From Gemmatimonadales bacterium (GTDB lineage: Bacteria > Gemmatimonadota > Gemmatimonadetes > Gemmatimonadales > GWC2-71-9), in the NCBI GenBank assembly GCA_035699205.1, contig DASSBA010000209.1, positions 2,062 to 66,061 of the forward strand: a stretch of 64,000 bases of DNA. Reading direction: 5' to 3'. Positions within the stretch are counted from its first letter, which is position 1; every line of letters starts with the position of its first letter. The position numbers and the translations under genes were made by a program. Below, piece by piece: positions 11,981 to 63,084 of this stretch. The notes beneath the pieces were generated by a model that saw only the letters and a program-made list of their open reading frames with translations, ran no database searches and was not told the DNA's origin.

Positions 11981-12319
11981 ATGGCCGCGACGAATGCCCC
12001 GACTGTCCACGTCACCGATGCCTCGTTCGCCAGCGAGATCGAGCAGGCCGATGGACTCGTGCTGGTCGACTTCTGGGCGACGTGGTGCGGCCCGTGCCAG
12101 ATCGTGGCCCCCGTGCTCGAACAGCTCGCCGGTGAGTACGCCGGTCGCGCCAAGGTCGCCAAGGTGGATGTCGACGCCAACCAGCGCACCGCAATGCGCT
12201 TCAACGTCCGCTCGATCCCGAGCATCCTCTTCTTCAAGAACGGCCAGCACGTCGATACCGTGATCGGCGCGGTGCCGAAGGCGACGCTGGAGGGGAAGAT
12301 CAAGCAGCACCTGGCATAG
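11981..12319 (+). CDS. trxA: Thioredoxin
   Basis: WCGPCQ active site. The ATG at 11981 is preceded by GGGAGA. The stop TAG is at 12317-12319. Confidence 0.92.
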   Translation: MAATNAPTVHVTDASFASEIEQADGLVLVDFWATWCGPCQIVAPVLEQLAGEYAGRAKVAKVDVDANQRTAMRFNVRSIPSILFFKNGQHVDTVIGAVPKATLEGKIKQHLA

Positions 12320-12392
12320 ACGGAAGGACGGAAAGACGGAAAGACGGAAGGTGCGGCCCTTTCGTCCTTCCGTCTTTCCGTCTTTCCGTCCT
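12319..12392. repeat. Hairpin with tandem 8-mer arms: (GACGGAAR)x4 then (YTTCCGTC)x4
   Basis: Left arm 12319-12351, right arm 12359-12392. One register gives 26 perfect bp (12325-12350 with 12367-12392). An alternative register gives about 32 bp with 2 mismatches and 1 GU around an 8-nt loop. The element fills the trxA-rsmI spacer. Confidence 0.9.
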
Positions 12393-29251: not shown

Positions 29252-29270
29252 GGGGCCTGCCGGATGCGTG

Positions 29271-29306
29271 AAAGGTGAAAGGTGAGTGACTTCACCTTTC
29301 ACCTTT
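29271..29306. repeat. Hairpin with tandem 7-mer arms: (GGTGAAA)x2 / (TTTCACC)x2
   Basis: 15 perfect bp (29271-29285 with 29292-29306) and a 6-nt loop. It lies 13 nt past the 3' end of tRNA-Ser and 19 nt before the gltX start (both on the minus strand). Confidence 0.8.
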
Positions 29307-29319
29307 GGGTGTGGTCGGA

Positions 29320-29409
<90 letters not shown>

Positions 29410-29548
29410 AGAGGCGTGCAAAATCGCCGGTCTTCGACATCCAGGCAAGGGTTCGGCCATGTCTCCGGGACTTGCGGTGGCTCCCGGACCGTACAAGGTT
29501 TGACCTCCCACGAACTCCCAACCCGGACCGCGACGAGGACCCCCCCGC

Positions 29549-47883: not shown

Positions 47884-49250
47884 GGGGTCTTCCTGGCGGG
47901 CCGGTTGCGGAGCGAGTCGGGGCGCCGCTTCAGCGAGTCGGGCGCGGCCTTCAGCGAGTCGGGCCTCCGACCGAGCGAATCGGCGGCGCGCCGGAGCGAG
48001 TCCGGCGGCGGCGGCTTGGGGACCGCGAGCACGCCGCTCGCGTCTCCCGCCGCGCCGGTCACGTTCCGGATGCCCCGGAGATCGATGGCGTAGCGTCCGT
48101 CCGGCTTCCACGGCTGCTCGACTCTGAGCACGAGGCGGTCGCTGAGGGGCGGGCGCGTGGTGAGCGGCTTGGGCTCGGCCGCCCCGCGGGCGCCTGGTGC
48201 GCCCGGTGGCGCACCCTCCTCGACCTCCGCGATGCCCGGGCGCCGGGCGGCAGCCCGGTTGCGTGCGGCGGTGTCCCGCGCCGTCGTGTCGCGTGCCGTC
48301 GTATCGCGGCGGGTGGTATCGCGCGCCGCCCCAGCGCGCTGGTGGAGGCTGTCGTCCACCGGCTTGGGGAGCAGCGAGCTCACCCGCACGGGCGTCGAAT
48401 CGGGCAGGAGCCGAACCCTGGCCGCGGCGGCGGTCAGGCGCTGCCGCGGGTCGAGGCTCTGGGTGAGCTCGATGGTGGCGGACACGCTGTCGGCGACGGT
48501 GATGGTCCGGATGCGCGGCGGCGTCGTATCGTGCACGAACGCCCAGAGCTCACCCGCCGACGTCTTCCCCCGGGCCAGGCGCACGCTGTCGAACGCCTCG
48601 CGCGGGTCGAATCGCAGGTTGTGGTTCTGGTCGAGCACCCCGCGGACCAGGTACTCCCCCGCGGGCAGCGGGCCGAGGGAGATGTGACCGCTCGAGTCGG
48701 TCACCCCGCGGTAGGGGAGGCTGTCCGGCAGCAGGATCGCCTCGAGCAGCGCGGCCGGCGCCGGGCGGCTGGTGCTCCAGTCCACCACGGTGCCCTCGAT
48801 TTTCGCCGCCGGCAGGGGCGCGCCGGTCGTGAACGTCACGACGGCCCCGGTGTCGCTCCGGTTGCGCCGGAGATCGGTGACCCCCGGGAGCAGCTCCACC
48901 CGGTAGACGCGGTCGGCCCGCCAGCCTTCGCTCGGGCGCACGTCGATGCGGTCCCGGTGCCAGCTCACGTCCGGTACTCGAATGGCGGGCGAGAGGATGA
49001 TGAGCTTCTCCAGATCGCCCGTGCCGGTGCCTTCATTGGGCGTGGACCCCTCGGAGATGACCTCGTCGAAGCGGAACTCCACGCTCCCGCCGAAGTCCGG
49101 GATGCGGGCGAACGAGTCCGGGCGGGTGGCGAGGAGCTGCGGGGGTGAGATGTCGGGCGGGCCGCCGGGGGGCGGCTCGATGCGGGCGCAGGAAAGGAGC
49201 AACGGGACGGAGAGACGGAGGGACGGAGCGACGGAGCGACACAAGCCCAT
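47880..49250 (-). CDS. Lipoprotein with Ig-like (SbsA/Big_5-type) domains and basic C-terminal peptide repeats
   Basis: MGLCRSVAPSLRLSVPLLLSCARIE (lipobox LLLSC). Central beta-rich domains. The C-terminal region carries RDTT[AR] x4 and a [PA]DSL-containing 7-aa repeat x5. The start codon lies in the loop of the 49214..49296 hairpin. Confidence 0.7.
   Translation of the reverse strand: MGLCRSVAPSLRLSVPLLLSCARIEPPPGGPPDISPPQLLATRPDSFARIPDFGGSVEFRFDEVISEGSTPNEGTGTGDLEKLIILSPAIRVPDVSWHRDRIDVRPSEGWRADRVYRVELLPGVTDLRRNRSDTGAVVTFTTGAPLPAAKIEGTVVDWSTSRPAPAALLEAILLPDSLPYRGVTDSSGHISLGPLPAGEYLVRGVLDQNHNLRFDPREAFDSVRLARGKTSAGELWAFVHDTTPPRIRTITVADSVSATIELTQSLDPRQRLTAAAARVRLLPDSTPVRVSSLLPKPVDDSLHQRAGAARDTTRRDTTARDTTARDTAARNRAAARRPGIAEVEEGAPPGAPGARGAAEPKPLTTRPPLSDRLVLRVEQPWKPDGRYAIDLRGIRNVTGAAGDASGVLAVPKPPPPDSLRRAADSLGRRPDSLKAAPDSLKRRPDSLRNRPARKTP
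47905..48010 (-). repeat. In-frame 21-nt tandem repeat x5 encoding a 7-aa unit with [PA]DSL core
   Basis: The AGCGA[GA]TC[GC]GG motif recurs at 47911, 47932, 47953, 47974 (one-mismatch copy, GA swapped to AG) and 47995. It translates as PDSLRRAADSLGRRPDSLKAAPDSLKRRPDSLRNRP. Confidence 0.8.
48268..48330 (-). repeat. In-frame 15-nt tandem repeat x4 encoding RDTT[AR]
   Basis: Imperfect units gcggtgtcccgcgcc / gtcgtgtcgcgtgcc / gtcgtatcgcggcgg / gtggtatcgcgcgcc, read as ARDTTRRDTTARDTTARDTAARN. Confidence 0.75.
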
Positions 49251-49296
49251 CCGGGTGGCTTTCCGCTCCGTCGCTCCGTCGCTCCGTCCCTCCGTC
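49214..49296. repeat. Hairpin with tandem 8-mer arms: (GACGGAGS)x3.4 / (SCTCCGTC)x3.4
   Basis: 27 perfect bp (49214-49240 with 49270-49296) and a 29-nt loop (49241-49269). One arm ends 1 nt from the valS stop (49298-49300). The loop holds the ATG at 49250-49248. The other arm encodes residues 4-13 of the lipoprotein signal peptide. Confidence 0.9.
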
Positions 49297-56427: not shown

Positions 56428-57308
56428 CCGAGCCGACGCCGCCCAGGCGCCAGCGCCCGGTGCTCCGGGCCATCGGCGCCGTCATCTGTTTCTACCTGCT
56501 CGGCGTCCTCCTCGTTTCGCTGCTGCTGCTGCCGTTCGCCAGGCAACTGACCTCGGGCGCATCCCCCACCGAGCTGGCCGCGCATCCGACGCCGCTGTTC
56601 GCGCTGGTGCAGGGCGTCGCGCTCCTGCTGGCGTTCGGCGCCGCCACCTGGATCGTCGGCGTCCGCGCGCTCCGGTTCGGGGCCGCCGACCTCCGCTGGC
56701 GAACCCGGCTGGGCTGGGCCCGGGGGCTCGGCGCCGGCCTGGTCTTCGGCATCCTCCCTGCCGCGATCGCGATGACCCTCGGCGTGTTCACCGCCGGCGC
56801 GGGGTGGATTCACGACGGCGGCTCGCTGCAGCAATGGGTGCTGCAGGCGGGGAAGACCGTGCTGATCCTCGCGCCGGCGGCGCTCGCGGAGGAGCTGATG
56901 TTCCGGGGGCTCCCCATGGTCATCGCCGGCCGGACGCTCGGCCGCGGCCGCGCGATCCTGCTGCTCTCGCTGCTCTTCTCGCTGGCTCACATCCGGAATC
57001 CCGACGTGACCTCCGCCGGTCTCGCCAACATCGCGCTGGCCGGAATCTGGCTCTCGCTCGCGTTCTTCAGCGCGGGCGGCATGTGGACCGCGTTCGGGGC
57101 GCATCTCGGCTGGAACGCCACCCTGGCGGCGCTGGCGGCGCCGGTGAGCGGCCTCCCGTTCGACATCCCCTACATCGATTACCGGATGGGGGCTCCCGCC
57201 TGGCTCACGGGCGGCGCGTTCGGACCCGAGGGCGGTCTGCTCGGCACGCTGGCGCTCACCGTGACGGTAGTGCTCGCGGCCCAGTGGATCCGGCGGGAGC
57301 CGACATGA
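56424..57308 (+). CDS. CPBP family (CAAX/Abi) intramembrane glutamic endopeptidase
   Basis: EELMFRG motif, [11 protein letters not shown] and GAHLGWN motifs, multi-pass membrane protein. Confidence 0.85.
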
Positions 57309-58153
57309 GTCGCGCCGCCGTCATCGGCGCGGGCACCATGGGCAACGGTATCGCCCACGTCTTCGCGCAGCATGGGTGGGCGGTGGCGCTGATCGACACG
57401 GCGCCGGCCGCCCTCGAAAAGGCCACGGCGACCATCCGGGCCAATCTCGACCGGCAGGTGAAGAAGGGGACGCTGGCGCCAGAGGCGCCGGCCGAGGTGC
57501 TGGGACGCATCACCACCGCCACCGAACTCGGGGCCGCAGCGGGCGCGACGCTGGTGGTCGAGGCGGCGAGCGAGAATCCGGCGGTCAAATTCGCGGTCTT
57601 CGAGCAGCTCGACCGCGAGTGCGGGCCGGACGCGATCCTGGCCACCAACACCAGCTCGATCTCGGTCACCGAAATCGCCGCCCGTACGCGCCGGCCGGGG
57701 CAGGTGATCGGGATGCATTTCATGAACCCGGTGCCGGTCATGCAACTCGTCGAGGTGATCCGGGGCCACGCCACGAGCGACGCCACCACGCGAATGGTGA
57801 TGGAGACGGCCGCCGCGCTGGGCAAGACGCCGGTCGAGGTGAACGACTATCCGGGTTTCATCTCCAACCGCGTCCTGATGCCGATGGTCAACGAGGCGAT
57901 CTTCTGCGTCATGGAAGGCGTGGCGGCGCCGGAGGCGATCGATACCGTCATGAAGCTCGGGATGGCGCACCCGATGGGTCCGCTCGCGCTCGCCGATTTC
58001 ATCGGCCTCGACGTCTGCCTGGCCATCCTGGAGGTGCTGCAGCATGGCCTGGGCGACGACAAGTACCGGCCCTGCCCGCTGCTCCGGAAGATGGTGGCCG
58101 CGGGGGACCTGGGGAGGAAGAGCGGGCGGGGGTTTTTTCTCTATAAGTCGTGA
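57305..58153 (+). CDS. hbd: 3-hydroxybutyryl-CoA dehydrogenase
   Basis: [15 protein letters not shown]..., [39 protein letters not shown]. Confidence 0.92.
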
Positions 58154-58256
58154 GTCGTGAGTCGTAAGTCGTGAGTCGTAAGGCATGACTCAGCGCCGAT
58201 CACACACCGTCCGACTCACAAGGTCGACTCACGACTCACGACTCACGACTCACGAC
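58147..58256. repeat. Hairpin with tandem 7-mer arms: (GTCGTRA)x5 / (TCACGAC)x4+
   Basis: About 32 bp with one A-C mismatch (58147-58178 with 58225-58256) and a loop of about 46 nt. The hbd stop TGA (58151-53) is inside the first repeat. The element ends 13 nt before the next start (58270). Confidence 0.88.
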
Positions 58257-58269
58257 CTGCGACTATCCC

Positions 58270-59337
58270 ATGGACCTCCTCGCCCAGATGCACGCGCTCG
58301 GCCACGAGCAGGTACTGTTCTCTCACGACCCCAGCTGCGGCTACTTCGGCATCATCGCCATCCACGACACCACGCTCGGCCCCGCGCTCGGCGGCACCCG
58401 ATTCTGGCAATACGCCTCCACCGAGGACGCCACCACCGACGCGCTCAGGCTGGCGCGCGGGATGACCTACAAGTCGGCCGTCATGGGGATCAATCTCGGC
58501 GGGGGCAAGTCGGTGATCGTGGGCGACAACAAGCGGCCGGACCGGGAAGCGCTGTTTCGCGCCCACGGCCGCTTCATCGAGACGCTCGGCGGCCGCTACA
58601 TCACCGCCGAAGACATCGGCACCAGCCCTGCCGACATGGAATACATCAAGCTGGAAACCGACCACGTGGCCGGCCTGCTGGGTCTCTCCGGCGACCCGTC
58701 GCCGGTGACCGCCTTCGGCGTGTACGTCGGGATGAAGGCGGCGGCCAGGGCCCGCTGGGGGGACGATCGGCTGGAGGGAAAGACGGTGGCGGTGCAGGGA
58801 TGCGGCCACGTGGCGACGCATCTCTGCCGGCATCTGCACGCGGACGGGGTCCGGCTCATCGTGACCGACATCGACGGCGAGAAAGTCCGGCGGGTGATGG
58901 ACGAGACCGGCGCCGGCTGCGTGGCCCCGGAGGCGATCTACGACCAGGTCGCCGACATCTATGCGCCCTGCGCCCTGGGCGCCACCATCAACGACGAGAC
59001 GCTGCCGCGGCTCAAGGTGGAGATCATCGCCGGGGCCGCCAACAACCAGCTCGCGGAGGACCGCCACGGCGACCTGCTCGAGCAGCGCGGGATTCTCTAC
59101 GCGCCGGACTACGTGATCAACGGCGGCGGCGTCATCAACGTCTATGGCGAGCTGCACCGCTGGCCGCACGAGCGCTCGAAGCAGAAGGCCGGCGAGATCT
59201 ACGATACGCTGCTCCGCATCTTCGACATCGCCACGCGCGAGCGCATCCCGACCTACCGCGCGGCGGACCGGCTGGCCGAGGAGCGGATCGCGGCGGTGGG
59301 GGGGCTGGACCGGATGTGGATGGGCGACGGACGGTGA
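58270..59337 (+). CDS. Leucine/valine/phenylalanine dehydrogenase family enzyme
   Basis: [22 protein letters not shown] (catalytic Lys), [16 protein letters not shown] Rossmann motif. Confidence 0.88.
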
Positions 59338-59403
59338 GCGGTAAGCGGTGAGCGGTAGTTTCCGGGTGCCGCCGCTCACCGCTCACCGCTTACCGCTCAC
59401 CGT
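59331..59403. repeat. Hairpin with tandem 7-mer arms: (GCGGTRA)x3.7 / (TYACCGC)x3.7
   Basis: 26 perfect bp (59331-59356 with 59378-59403) and a 21-nt loop. The stop TGA (59335-37) is inside the first repeat. One unit has a G-to-A change on the left arm matched by C-to-T on the right arm. Confidence 0.9.
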
Positions 59404-59533
59404 TCCCCCCTCTCCCCCTCCCGCGAATTCTTATACATTAGGTACCGGAAGCCCGAAGTCATTTCCATCGGATCGGACCATGCCGGCGTGGAGTTGAAGG
59501 CGCGCCGCGTCGCACCATCGACGAGGAGCAGGA

Positions 59534-60817
59534 ATGAGTCTGGATCACAACGCATCGCTCCGGGAGGCCGATCCGCTGGTGGCGCGGCTCATCGACCGCG
59601 AACTGCGCCGCCAGCAGAACGGCCTCGAGCTGATCGCGAGCGAGAACTTCGCCAGCCGGGCGGTCATCGATGCCATGGGTACGCCGCTCACCAACAAGTA
59701 CGCCGAGGGCTACCCGGGGCGGCGCTACTACGGCGGGTGCGAGGTGGTGGACGAGATCGAGCAACTGGCCATCGACCGCCTGAAGGAGTTGTTCGGCGCG
59801 GAGCACGCCAACGTGCAGCCGCACTCGGGCGCGCAGGCCAACTTCGCGGCCTTCATGGCCGTCATCAAGCCGGGCGCCACCATCATGGGGATGTCGCTGC
59901 CGCACGGCGGCCATCTCACACATGGCGCGCCGGTCAGCCACAGCGGCGTGATCTGGCGGGCGGTGCACTACGGCGTGAACCCCGCCACCGGCCTCATCGA
60001 TTACGACGCGGTCCGCCGGCTGGCCCTGCAGGAGCAGCCGGCGCTCGTCATCGCGGGCGGGAGCGCGTATGCGCGCGTCATCGACTTCCCGGCCTTCCGC
60101 TCGATCGCCGACGAGGTGGGCGCGATCTTTCTGGTGGACATGGCCCACTTTGCCGGGCTGGTCGCGGGCGGCGTCTATCCCTCGCCGGTGCCGCACGCGC
60201 AGGTGGTCACCAGCACCACCCACAAGACGCTCCGCGGGCCGCGGGCCGGACTCATTCTCTCGATCGCCGAGCACGCCAAGGCCATCGACAAGTCGGTCTT
60301 CCCCGGCACCCAGGGCGGGCCGCTGGAACACGTGATCGCCGCCAAGGCCGTGGCCTTCGGCGAGGCGCTCACCCCCGACTTCCGCGTCTACGCCCGGCGG
60401 GTGGTGGAGAATGCGCAGACCCTGGCCGACGCGCTGATCGAGCGGGGCTTCGACATCGTCTCCGGCGGGACCGACTCGCACCTGATGCTGGTGGATCTCC
60501 GGCCCAAGGGCCTCACCGGCAAGGTGGCCGAAAAGACGCTCGACCAGGCCGGGATCACGGTCAACAAGAATACCGTGCCCGACGACCCGCAGTCCCCGTT
60601 CGTGACCAGCGGGATCCGGCTGGGCACCCCGGCCCTCACGACGCGCGGGATGGGACGGGCCGAAATGGTCCGCGTGGCCGAGCTGATCGACCGCGCGCTC
60701 ACCCGTCCCGACGAGGCCACCCTCGGCCGGGTGAAGCAGGAGGTCGAGGAGCTGACCTCCACGTTCCCGCTGTACCAGTCGGCGAAACCCGCCGGCCGCG
60801 TGCGGCGGAGCGCCTGA
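59534..60817 (+). CDS. glyA: Serine hydroxymethyltransferase
   Basis: ELIASENF...[16 protein letters not shown]...[12 protein letters not shown] (PLP lysine). Confidence 0.93.
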
Positions 60818-60839
60818 GCTCCGGGGAGCCGTCGCCCGC

Positions 60840-61226
60840 GTGAACGAACTGCAGTTTGCCGAAGATGTCCTCGCGCGCATCCGCGCGCGGGGCGGTCCCT
60901 ATCACGAGCGCAGCTTCCTCTTCATGCTCGCCGCCATCGAGTACCTGCAGTCGCGCCTGGACGCGCGGCGCCACGTGGACGGCGCCGAGCTCGCGTGGGC
61001 CTGCCGCGATTTCGCCCGGGCGCAGTTCGGCCTGCTCGCGCCGCACGTGCTGGCGCACTGGGGCGTCACGCGCACCGAGGACTTCGGCCGCATCGTCTTC
61101 ACGCTGGTGGAGGTGGGACTGCTGGTCACCCAGCCGGGCGACCAGGAGGGGGACTTCGAGGGTGTCTTCGACTTCGCCGAGGCGTTCGGCGACGTCTACG
61201 AGTGGTCCGGCGTGCGGGGCGCCTGA
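60840..61226 (+). CDS. Hypothetical protein, possibly Minf_1886-like (TIGR04138) family
   Basis: HVDGAELAWACRDFARAQFGLLAPHVLAHWGVTRTEDFGRIVFTLVEVGLL resembles that family as I remember it. GTG start. Confidence 0.55.
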   Translation: MNELQFAEDVLARIRARGGPYHERSFLFMLAAIEYLQSRLDARRHVDGAELAWACRDFARAQFGLLAPHVLAHWGVTRTEDFGRIVFTLVEVGLLVTQPGDQEGDFEGVFDFAEAFGDVYEWSGVRGA

Positions 61227-61257
61227 CCGGGGGACGGGGTCCATCATCGGGGGGCAC

Positions 61258-61452
61258 ATGGACAAGACCGAATGGCCGGCGTGCCAGAAGTGCTCGCAGG
61301 GTACCCTCATTCCGCTCTCCGATTACGGGCGCGAAGGCGCGCCGATCACCTATAAGGCCTGGGTCTGCACCAACCCCGAGTGCGGCTTCAATCTCCGGAT
61401 CGACAACGGGGAGATCTCCTTCGGGCGGGCGATCGGGCAGAGCTACAAATGA
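61258..61452 (+). CDS. Small zinc-ribbon protein (64 aa)
   Basis: CQKC ... CTNPEC gives two Cys pairs. The ATG is preceded by a GGGGGG purine run. Confidence 0.5.
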   Translation: MDKTEWPACQKCSQGTLIPLSDYGREGAPITYKAWVCTNPECGFNLRIDNGEISFGRAIGQSYK

Positions 61453-61455
61453 GGA

Positions 61456-61530
61456 GCGGTGAGCGGTGAGCGGTGAGCGGTATACGCTTCCGTCGCTCAC
61501 CGCTCACCGCTCACCGTTTACCGCTCACCG
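61456..61530. repeat. Hairpin with tandem 7-mer arms: (GCGGTGA)x3.8 / (TCACCGC)x3+ (same unit as 59331..59403)
   Basis: 23 perfect bp (61457-61479 with 61494-61516) plus 2 GU, with a loop of about 10 nt. An extra TTTACCGCTCACCG unit allows a slipped register. It starts 4 nt after the stop (61450-52) and ends 6 nt before the nnr ATG (61537). Confidence 0.88.
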
Positions 61531-61536
61531 TCCACC

Positions 61537-63084
61537 ATGCCCCCCGTCCTTTCCCCCACCCAATCCGCCGCCTGGGACGCGACTGCCGTCGCGGGGGGTA
61601 TCGCGCTCGCCACCCTGATGGAGTGCGCGGGCAGAGCCGCCGCGGCGGTGATTGCGGCGCGGTATGCCCACCGGCTGCGCGACGGTGTGCTGGTGGCCGC
61701 CGGCCCCGGGCACAACGGAGGAGACGGCTGGGTGGTGGCGCGGGCACTCCATCGCGTGGCGGTGCCGGTCTGGGTTGCGGCGCCGCCGGGGCCCGGAGCG
61801 GAGTTGCGCGATGCCATGGCGGCACGGGCTCGCGAGGAGGGCGTGCGCGAGGTGCCGCCCGATGGACCGTGGCCCGGCGTGGGTCTCGTCGTGGACGCGC
61901 TGCTCGGCACCGGCGCGCGCGGAGCCCCGCGGCCCGCGATGGCCGCGCTGCTCGACCGCATCCTGGACCTGGAGCTGCCCGTCGTCGCCATCGACGGGCC
62001 CACGGGTATGGACCTCGAATCGGGGATCGTGCACGGGACCACACGGGCGGACCTCACGATCACCTTTGGCGGTGCGAGGCGGGGACACCTGCTCGCCCGC
62101 GACGAGACCGGCACCCTGGTGGTGGTGGACGTCGGCCACCCTCCGCCCGACCCGGCCTGGCCGTCGCTCGTGACGGACCGGCAGGCCGCGGACTGGCTTC
62201 GCCGGCTCCGGAGCCGGGACCACAAGGGCGCGCGCGGTCGAGTCGTCGTGGTCGGCGGCGATGCGGGAATGGTCGGCGCGGCGCGCATGGCGGGCCGGGC
62301 CGCATTCGGTGCGGGGGCCGGGCTGGTCCACGTGGTCGCACCGCCCGCCTCCGTGGCGGCGCTGATCCAGGCGGAGCCGGACCTGCAGACCCTCGCGCAT
62401 GCGTTCGACCAGGAGCCCACGGCCGCGCTGCTCGAGCTGGTGGAGCGGGCGGACGCGGTGATCGTCGGACCGGGGCTCGGCCGGGAGCCGGGGCGCCGCG
62501 CGTTCGTGACCCGGCTGGTACGGGCCGCACGCGCGGTGGTGCTCGACGCTGACGCGCTGGTCGCGTTCCACGGCGCGGCCGCCGAGCTTCGCGCGCTCGC
62601 GTCGGAGCGCTCGCTGGTCCTGACTCCCCATCCGGGCGAGTTCCGCGGCCTGTTCCCCGAGCTGGCTCCGATCCGGGAGCTGGATCCCTGGGGTGCCGCG
62701 GCGGCCGCGGCGGAGCGGTCGGCCGCGACGGTGCTGCTCAAGGGGGTGCCCACGGTGATTGCCCGGACGGGGTGGGCGCCGCTCACCGTGGCCGCGGGGA
62801 ATCCGGGCCTCGCCACCGGGGGGAGCGGCGACGTGCTGAGCGGGCTCGTGGCCACCGCGCTCGCCCAGCAGCTCACGCCCGAGGCCGCCGCGGCCCTCGG
62901 CGCCCAGGCGCTCGGCCGGGCCGCCGATCTGGCCGCCCGCCGGACCTCCGCCCGCACGCTCCGGCCGATGGACGTGGTCGCGGCCCTGCCGGATCTCTGG
63001 CGTGCGTGGGAGCTGCTCCGCCTCGCGCCACCGCTGCCCCGGCCGCCGATCCTGTTCGAGCTCGCTGCACCCCTGACGGTCTGA
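61537..63084 (+). CDS. nnr: Bifunctional NAD(P)H-hydrate epimerase / ADP-dependent dehydratase
   Basis: YjeF-N (VLVAAGPGHNGGDGWVVAR) plus YjeF-C/carbohydrate kinase (HKGARGRVVVVGG...GNPGLATGGSGDVLSG). Confidence 0.9.
   Translation: MPPVLSPTQSAAWDATAVAGGIALATLMECAGRAAAAVIAARYAHRLRDGVLVAAGPGHNGGDGWVVARALHRVAVPVWVAAPPGPGAELRDAMAARAREEGVREVPPDGPWPGVGLVVDALLGTGARGAPRPAMAALLDRILDLELPVVAIDGPTGMDLESGIVHGTTRADLTITFGGARRGHLLARDETGTLVVVDVGHPPPDPAWPSLVTDRQAADWLRRLRSRDHKGARGRVVVVGGDAGMVGAARMAGRAAFGAGAGLVHVVAPPASVAALIQAEPDLQTLAHAFDQEPTAALLELVERADAVIVGPGLGREPGRRAFVTRLVRAARAVVLDADALVAFHGAAAELRALASERSLVLTPHPGEFRGLFPELAPIRELDPWGAAAAAAERSAATVLLKGVPTVIARTGWAPLTVAAGNPGLATGGSGDVLSGLVATALAQQLTPEAAAALGAQALGRAADLAARRTSARTLRPMDVVAALPDLWRAWELLRLAPPLPRPPILFELAAPLTV

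Follow-up and report, generated by a model that had tools for sequence, protein, structure and literature searches.

In a 64,000-nucleotide (nt) stretch of a Gemmatimonadales genome (GenBank assembly GCA_035699205.1, contig DASSBA010000209.1, positions 2,062 to 66,061; hereafter the window), three plus-strand genes end inside tandem arrays of a seven-nucleotide unit that contains a stop triplet, and each array has an inverted partner with which it can fold into a long hairpin. This raises the question of whether the stops serve the genes as back-up terminators, catching ribosomes that read through or shift frame as a preliminary description of this DNA had proposed, or whether they are only a by-product of the repeat unit. 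Our analysis favors the second answer: with a probability of about 0.72, the stops are an incidental, permissive trait of two unit families that carry TGA, and not selected back-up terminators. The three hairpins themselves appear to be best read as cargo-less derivatives of small cassettes in which inverted arrays enclose a gene for an intervening sequence (IVS) protein (IVP; PF05635).

Three genes in the window end in repeat units

The first of these genes, hbd (57284-58153, plus strand; 3HCDH domains by Pfam), ends in TAT AAG TCG TGA, and its last codons AAG TCG are, together with the TGA, already part of an (AGTCGTG)n array. This array, the 5' arm of hairpin 1 (58146..58181, plus strand), consists of five AGTCGTG units of what we call family A (unit GTGAGTC), and it provides the hbd stop at 58151-58153 and four more stops (TGA 58158, TAA 58165, TGA 58172, and TAA 58179). 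A loop of about 45 nt without an open reading frame (ORF) follows (58182..58224), marking this as a cargo-less copy, and then the 3' arm (58225..58264, plus strand; (CGACTCA)x4.6 plus a degenerate unit), the end of which lies 5 nt before the ATG at 58270 of a Glu/Leu/Phe/Val dehydrogenase gene (58270-59337, plus strand; assigned by Pfam). The dehydrogenase gene in turn ends in GGA CGG TGA inside a (GCGGTRA)n array. Here the 5' arm of hairpin 2 (59332..59357, plus strand; (CGGTRAG)x3.7) belongs to family B (unit GGTGAGC) and carries the gene's TGA at 59335-59337, followed by TAA 59342, TGA 59349, and TAG 59356; its 3' arm is (CCGCTCA)x4.4 (59372..59402, plus strand). The third gene is a zinc-ribbon ORF of 64 codons (61258-61452, plus strand) that ends in a partial unit, TGAG. 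This partial unit holds the real stop (61450-61452) and opens the 5' arm of hairpin 3 (61450..61481, plus strand), which continues with four GAGCGGT units of family B and further TGA triplets at 61460, 61467, and 61474, while the 3' arm (61494..61536, plus strand; (CGCTCAC)x5.3) is flush with the ATG at 61537 of a YjeF/Nnr gene.

Direct reading of the sequence confirmed every stop triplet listed in the preliminary description, and the ORF ends agree that a repeat unit supplies the stop of all three genes. There is a stop in every unit because the unit sequence itself has a stop triplet, and as seven is not a multiple of three, an array of TGA-bearing heptamers would close all three reading frames. 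Such closure is indeed seen in all three cases, but not always within the 21 nt that had been claimed: hairpin 3 needs 27 nt, and its real stop at 61450 lies in the degenerate partial unit, 10 nt rather than 7 before the next TGA. Each array in the three hairpins was paired with its inverted partner using Tandem Repeats Finder (TRF). Folded as RNA, the hairpins form stems of 28-35 bp with energies of -63.5, -64.5, and -64.0 kcal/mol (z = -7.7 to -10.9 relative to shuffled sequences), and their loops of 12-45 nt contain no PF05635 ORF.

The hairpins are a genome-wide family anchored at gene ends

To place these hairpins in context, we catalogued all TRF arrays in the assembly (G000; 3.70 Mb, 296 contigs, 71% G+C, 90% complete) that could be paired with a reverse-complementary array. 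Among named loci, the best DNA matches of this assembly are to Gemmatimonadota and Gemmatimonadales metagenome-assembled genomes, with 72-81% identity over 1-3.7 kb. Gene ends were taken from our own codon-bias gene caller, which predicted 3387 genes at 90.5% coding density and reproduced the Pfam-confirmed genes of the window. The catalogue contains 171 hairpins with arms of tandem 7-9-nt units. Family A accounts for 44 of them and family B for 32; the others are family C (GGCGGAAA-type 8-mers, 51 hairpins), family D (CACRGAGG(G) 8/9-mers, 25), family E (unit CACGAAGGG, 6), and 13 further hairpins that lie mostly within genes. Thus, among the 158 hairpins assigned to a family, 76 are built on TGA-bearing heptamers and 82 on stop-free 8/9-mers. 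The purine-rich arm, which is the stop-bearing one in families A and B, points outward on both sides, because a hairpin is its own reverse complement.

Our analysis showed that the hairpins are strongly tied to the 3' ends of genes. They occupy 28 convergent, 89 co-directional, and 8 divergent spacers, compared with 15, 76, and 34 expected from the numbers of such spacers (p = 4.5e-8), so that start-to-start spacers are depleted four-fold. In co-directional spacers, 83 of the 89 hairpins lie closer to the end of the upstream gene than to the next start, with median distances of 1 and 34 nt (p = 2e-18). The tightest placement is that of the stop-free family C, in which most arrays start -2 to +4 nt from the stop, typically on its two purines, so that the T of the stop is followed by AGGCGGAA, GACGGAA, or AAGGCGG. 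As a family without stops in its unit hugs stop codons in this way, nearness to a stop does not need unit stops; it belongs to the whole element family and is independent of whether the unit contains one. TAG is the stop of 29 of the 50 genes that abut family C arrays but of only 22.6% of genes genome-wide (p = 7e-8; an example is window positions 12315-12317), and the array appears to decide which stop codon the gene uses.

The window itself contains both stop-free hairpins and one that follows a tRNA gene, as the preliminary description had itself cautioned. A family C hairpin at 12318..12392 ((AGACGGAA)x4 / (CCTTCCGT)x4.4) has a stop-free unit and begins on the last two letters of the TAG that ends the upstream gene, and the unit of an 8-mer hairpin at 49206..49296 ((GACGGAGC)x4.4 / (CGCTCCGT)x4.1) is also free of stops. 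A short heptamer hairpin at 29268..29306 ((GTGAAAG)x2.6 / (TTCACCT)x2.3) lies just 3' of a tRNA-Ser(gct) gene (29317-29410, minus strand).

Arrays supply stops and C-terminal residues

The preliminary description proposed that the real stop is itself the first repeat unit. What stands of that proposal is that the stop is supplied by the array in the three window genes; genome-wide, A or B arrays face 69 gene ends, and the real stop falls in the first unit at only 11 of these. At 33 of these 69 ends the real stop is a unit's own triplet, located in unit 1, 2, 3, or 4 in 11, 10, 7, and 5 cases, respectively, and at 35 it lies 0-16 nt upstream of the first recognizable unit. The distribution over units 1-3 does not differ from uniform (p = 0.63), and such an even spread fits a random-phase meeting of array and reading frame rather than outward growth of the array from the stop. 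A real stop in unit 4 requires that an earlier in-frame unit has lost its stop.

The stop-bearing arrays also reach into genes far more often than the stop-free ones. Overlap with the coding sequence (CDS) of 4 nt or more occurs at 34 of 69 gene ends for A/B arrays and at 5 of 55 for family C (Fisher p = 1.6e-6), and at least 20 unrelated proteins carry C-termini encoded by arrays. Family B tails read ...AVSGER, ...AVSGKR, or ...GGER, and family A tails ...VVSRES or ...VSRGS, in each case up to the stop. In the two genes that we checked, the alignment with most congeneric orthologues stops about 5 residues short of the end, and the tails differ; for example, most congeners end in ...RRYIxEKLG, while the protein in G000 ends in ...RRYVREKVVSRGS. 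Two congeners have tails derived from heptamers of their own, G009 with DSKE, followed by GGAGTGA units, and G016 with YEVRGER. The latter is found in G016:C241, the orthologue of G000:C285:1450-2610, where ...YEVRGER is encoded by GGTGAGR units with no hairpin after them; this looks like an array-derived tail that has outlasted its hairpin. From these comparisons, we infer that stop-bearing arrays overran the ends of genes, overwriting existing sequence, and now provide both tail and stop.

Stop triplets are not consistently conserved

A stop in the unit is not in itself remarkable, as a random cyclic heptamer contains one with a probability of 0.12 at the composition of the genome and 0.24 at that of the arms. 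If the stops were under selection, they should be retained as units diverge, and the preliminary description had indeed claimed that unit variants stay stops. This does not hold across families. Units with TGA, TAA, or TAG make up 64-65% of family A and 93% of family B in arms facing gene ends, and they are about as frequent in arms facing gene starts (61% and 91%). Within the family A unit the TGA is the most variable part, with T conserved in 84%, G in 82%, and A in 76% of units, compared with 93-97% for GTC, and the stop-destroying variant GTGGGTC is more frequent than GTAAGTC. Among units with a single substitution, 62% would be expected to keep a stop; family A keeps it in 42%, losing stops beyond chance, and family B in 93%, where nearly all of the stop-keeping variants are one change, TGA to TAA. 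The two families are therefore opposite in stop retention, and there is no consistent signal. A founder effect, or a 14-mer-block effect, explains the retention in family B as well as selection does. Most of the stop-bearing heptamers in the order are of the form GTGAG+NN (NN being TC, CG, AG, AC, AA, GA, or TT), and the caveat in the preliminary description, that the stops may be a by-product of a GTGA-containing unit, turns out to be the better reading of the arrays.

Of the alternatives, the one that survives best places the adaptation at the level of the element: units with stops would be favored as a "gene-end cap" that serves a selfish element and not the host, allowing it to sit on or in the 3' end of a gene without read-through and shielding its hairpin and cargo ORF from upstream ribosomes. 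The abundance of stop-bearing heptamers is in keeping with this idea (76 loci in G000, about 98 pattern matches in G005, and over 1000 in G009), as is the fact that CDS overlap is typical of stop-bearing arrays. Moreover, both convergent host genes beside a full-length cassette on contig C10 of G000 terminate within its arrays (...TVSGER and ...AAGKR), and the same tolerance argument has been made for the TAACTGA repeats of other bacteria (PMC4679880). Nevertheless, family C, with 51 loci, shows that families without a stop in the unit match the others in abundance and in their anchoring at gene ends, and the cassettes that carry an IVP gene mostly lack the supposed cap: a stop is present in the outward arm of 5 of 14 heptamer units (p = 0.24 against an expectation of 24%, p = 0.02 against 12%) and in 1 of 5 of the 8/9-mer units, leaving 9 of 14 and 4 of 5 without one. 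Given also that no part of the family A unit is conserved less well than its stop triplet, we regard element-level adaptation as rather improbable.

The original proposal, that the arrays are kept after genes as a host-level fail-safe against read-through and frameshifting, fares considerably worse. It does draw on a real difference: all three frames are closed within 30 nt at 66% of the genes facing B arrays and 27% of those facing A arrays (40% and 17% within 21 nt) and at none of the 3002 genes without a hairpin, and the family B variants keep their stops. But only about 1% of these 3002 genes close all three frames even within 60 nt, so that about 99% of ordinary genes manage without such a back-up, and this near-absence accords with a bacteria-wide analysis that found no selection for fail-safe additional stops in eubacteria (Ho & Hurst 2019, PMC6764699). 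In addition, half of the hairpins are built on stop-free units, which are as common after CDSs as stop-bearing ones (82 of 158 hairpins, and the 9 of 14 cassette heptamers given above), family A loses stops faster than chance, the arms facing gene starts keep stops equally well, and the native C-termini have been overwritten rather than given an added back-up. Both outcomes that the preliminary description had named as refuting its proposal are therefore seen, the destruction of stops by unit variants in family A though not in family B. A fail-safe function for the host is thus very unlikely. Just as poorly placed is local seeding by slipped-strand duplication of a heptamer spanning the gene's own stop, which would put a stop in the unit by construction and would suit the G005 unit ACAAGTG, identical to the orthologous zinc-ribbon gene end ...tACAAGTGA, and the dehydrogenase end ...CGG TAA GCG of G010, which equals one B-type unit with no array there, but which sits badly with the recurrence of a single unit around cargo genes and at dozens to hundreds of sites in each genome, and with stop-free units that also abut stops.

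There are several points that weigh against treating the stops as incidental. Because the two arms are tied by complementarity, comparing those that face gene ends with those that face gene starts controls only weakly for position, and the p-values for unit variants are inflated, as units copy one another and are not independent. The retention of a stop in 93% of family B variants, through a frequent G-to-A change, could reflect selection. Both of the abundant heptamer families of G000 bear stops, and so do most of the abundant heptamer families in the relatives that we sampled (GTGAG+NN, GTGACAA, and RGCTAAC). Furthermore, the gene ends rest on our own codon-bias caller and not on curated annotation, and no cargo-bearing cassette of family A was found in the 90%-complete G000 assembly.

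Full-length copies carry cargo genes

The link between the hairpins and cassettes comes from a search for PF05635 combined with TRF and direct reading. Both IVP genes of G000 belong to full-length cassettes, each in a loop of roughly 450 nt: one at G000:C10 (1824-2419; PF05635 gene 1946-2251, 69.8 bits), between the family B arrays (CGGTGAG)5.6/(CTCACCG)16.3, and one at G000:C196 (186-756; PF05635 gene 275-589, 107.9 bits), between the family C arrays (GACGGAAA)3.9/(CTTTCCGT)8.1. The genes flanking both cassettes terminate inside or flush with the arrays. Other cargo was also identified, namely a GIY-YIG nuclease gene of 102 aa between B-type arms (G000:C11:63131-63700) and a PDDEXK_3 (PF13366) gene of 109 aa between CACAGAGGG arms of D type (G000:C87:877-1308). 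Family D hairpins with loops of about 90-110 nt may be leftovers of the PDDEXK_3 cassette.

IVP genes are common among relatives, occurring in 54 of 61 genomes of the order in 1-13 copies. Inverted arrays were present at 21 of the 27 IVP loci that we fetched, with 370-500 nt between the arms, and all of the copies examined sit between protein-coding genes, with none in a 23S rRNA helix. In three relatives, the units flanking IVP genes match families that are dispersed through that relative's own genome (in G005, GTGACAA and GGTCGAA; in G009, RGCTAAC and GAGAGGACG; and in G020, GTGATGAA). G004, in which the only IVP gene is broken, had no array hairpins in a 200-kb sample. We considered a purine-rich 5' arm as a general rule of these elements, but, although it is true in G000, four of the IVP cassettes in relatives have 5' arms with a purine fraction of 0.43.

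Many G000 contigs start or finish in arrays (e.g., C2:1-33, C282:1-26, C16:59-78, and C250:29-57). Repeats of this kind break the assembly, so that our number of hairpins is a minimum and some copies with cargo may have been missed. Some hairpins have loops of 116-146 nt in which a second conserved repeat (...CTGTCATCCCGAGCGNAGCGAGGGATC...) is nested; examples are G000:C4:14815-14938, C49:3134-3273, and C174:128-249, as well as locus L007.

Arrays turn over rapidly between congeners

The orthologous junctions in congeners turn over fast. After the zinc-ribbon gene, G000, G012, and G010 have (GGTGAGC)n, G005 has (GTGACAA)n, and G009 has (RGCTAAC)n, while G001, G004, G013, G014, and G018 have short unique sequence without a tandem array. 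After the dehydrogenase gene, where G000 has its B-type array, some congeners have an 8-mer or 9-mer array and several have none. GTGACAA arrays occur at dozens of loci but in G005 only, and RGCTAAC arrays at hundreds of loci in G009 only; the units are species-specific yet genome-wide. Between the dehydrogenase gene and glyA, the window also contains an rpiB remnant (59443-59533). At this site, congeners have an intact RpiB gene of 147-148 codons (MPEVIPIGADHAG...), of which the window retains a short piece of the 3' end and about 20 codons of the 5' end, where AAG has replaced the ATG; roughly 350-380 nt have been deleted.

We also looked beyond the order. Exact (GTGAGTC)x3.5 arrays are found on more than 120 contigs from many phyla, with hosts that include Chloroflexia, Thermomicrobiales, Chitinophagaceae, Vulcanimicrobiota, Halomonas, and Streptomyces. 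These are mostly unpaired direct repeats, and an inverted partner was present for only 6 of 84 arrays; the scan therefore says little about hairpin elements. In low-GC genomes, about a third of these arrays have a long ORF ending inside. A query for encoding contigs with the dehydrogenase protein gave no match on record.

Tests of possible mechanisms

To gain insight into how such arrays might arise and act, we examined several known processes. The IVSs of rRNA are excised by RNase III, but neither of the RNase III domains PF14622 and PF00636 was detected in G000. Within the window's class, no PF14622 match was obtained in any of 66 genomes, including closed ones at 98-100% completeness, and among genomes from other classes of the phylum 14 of 15 have one copy; PF00636 was absent from the five genomes tried. 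RNase III thus seems to have been lost throughout the class. Excision of this kind was therefore set aside, and its classical form appears unlikely here. A tie between the loss of RNase III and the spread of IVP is not clean, as other orders without RNase III mostly lack IVP (1 of 10 has it) and one RNase III-positive family carries it.

A model based on repetitive extragenic palindromic (REP) sequences and REP-associated tyrosine transposases (RAYTs) was rejected, as the Y1 transposase domain PF01797 is absent from the 90%-complete G000 assembly, while the control search matched six well-known genomes. Synthesis of arrays by a reverse transcriptase was also considered, as the IVP is Avd-like; PF00078 was not found in G000, G005, G004, or G020, and reverse-transcriptase templating was dismissed as a general mechanism. 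We compared the sense and antisense folds of 84 co-directional hairpins as a sign of strand-specific RNA optimization, but the two are alike (46 vs 37, p = 0.37; 232 vs 227 G-U pairs), and with equal stability on both strands nothing points to a strand-specific RNA role. Intrinsic (Rho-independent) terminators can be discounted for the three window hairpins, as a terminator scan found no T-run after any of them, the sequences following the 3' arms being CTGCGAC, CCCCCCTC, and ATGCCC. A search of Rfam returned only sub-threshold matches to microRNA hairpin models, as any long hairpin gives.

A proposed course of events and its implications

Several features of this system can be read directly from the genomes: the hairpins as catalogued, their anchoring at gene ends and overlap with CDSs, the array-coded tails, the unconserved stops, and the link to cassettes. 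Building on these, we propose that the three window hairpins belong to a genome-wide family of small palindromic, presumably selfish, elements and represent its cargo-less form. Full-length copies carry in their loop a tiny gene for a PF05635 IVS protein, a GIY-YIG nuclease, or a PD-(D/E)XK nuclease. These elements would be anchored at the 3' ends of genes, flush with or across the stop codon. Arrays may spread by copy-and-overwrite or by palindrome extension until selection on the flanking gene halts them, and the cargo proteins may propagate their own unit. The limit to this spread would be the T of the stop codon for stop-free units and a few codons into the gene for stop-bearing heptamers. 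That GTGAGTC and GGTGAGC contain TGA would be incidental, and an array of either that spreads or lands over the last codons would end the gene within three units and without read-through. As a result, about half of the genes facing A or B arrays use an array-supplied stop together with 2-6 array-coded C-terminal residues.

A more far-reaching and rather doubtful possibility is that these are undescribed mobile cassettes free of both transposase and reverse transcriptase, in which the cargo protein recognizes its own species-specific unit and copies hairpins over gene ends throughout the genome, with the stop heptamers having evolved as a "gene-end cap" through which the element can rewrite host C-termini. 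If true, this would give the orphan 23S rRNA IVS proteins a function. The arrays are of interest even if the stops are incidental. They remodel the C-termini of proteins, giving dozens of unrelated proteins of one genome an identical array-coded ending, with tails that differ between species of one genus, which is relevant to annotators and to comparative work on proteins. Because unit families are paired with cargo genes flanked by the same unit, and these units differ between congeners, the function of the IVS proteins becomes testable. The apparent class-wide lack of RNase III also makes one ask what these bacteria do with such long RNA hairpins.

Comparison with known systems

The closest precedent for stops in heptamer arrays is the TAACTGA repeat, known from Beggiatoaceae, cyanobacteria, and Bacteroidetes (MacGregor 2015, PMC4679880). 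In the forward orientation these repeats put stops in all three frames, so that an upstream ORF can extend into them by about 18 nt at most, and this has been given as the reason why they are tolerated at gene ends. The GTGAGTC and GGTGAGC units resemble them in that each carries a stop on the strand of the upstream gene and in that ORFs mostly enter the array by no more than about three units (28 cases in units 1-3, with 5 in unit 4). However, of the 169 sets of TAACTGA repeats almost all are direct and only a single one is indirect, most of them sit shortly before start codons, and several phyla share one unit, whereas the arrays in G000 are inverted pairs that form long hairpins at gene 3' ends, with species-specific units that are linked to cargo. 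Rehm et al. (2015, PMC4692102) described another set of dispersed intergenic heptamer arrays, GGGAATC in Xanthomonas and GGGGA(C/T)T in Nostoc; each Xanthomonas genome has 70-75 inverted pairs in convergent orientation. The GGGAATC unit is stop-free and yet lies near stop codons, so in that system as well nearness needs no stop in the unit. It differs from ours in having one unit per genus, where G000 has several per genome, and in that its arrays have been read as G-quadruplex formers and no cargo genes were described.

The cargo points instead to the IVS of 23S rRNA. In Coxiella burnetii, the IVS has a 28 bp stem, formed by terminal inverted repeats, with a PF05635 ORF in a loop of about 430 nt, its 5' part contains variable-number heptamers (GACAGAT), and the S23p/IVP product is a four-helix bundle; the element is regarded as selfish, lies within 23S rRNA helices, and is excised there by RNase III (Warrier et al. 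2016, PMC4990558). The full-length copies in G000 share the inverted arrays around a loop of about 0.4-0.5 kb with a PF05635 ORF, but they lie between protein-coding genes, most copies lack the ORF, and the entire stem consists of repeats. REP sequences and REPINs, with their RAYT transposases, are likewise species-specific, with a cognate gene flanked by the repeats (Bertels & Rainey 2011, PMC3116915). Like our hairpins, they are short extragenic palindromes that lie just after genes and number from dozens to hundreds; unlike REP/REPIN, the hairpins come without Y1/RAYT, and their arms are variable-number tandem arrays and not a fixed palindrome of 20-40 nt. Lastly, the fail-safe or "ambush" idea, in which additional stops, in frame or off frame, make read-through or frameshifting less costly (PMC6764699; Morgens et al. 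2013, PMC3700767), has been studied for dispersed single triplets, while in G000 a repeat element brings its stops in together, without consistent conservation. The principle of three-frame stops was thus already published for TAACTGA, and what is new here is that inverted arrays of this kind are tied to IVS-type cassettes.

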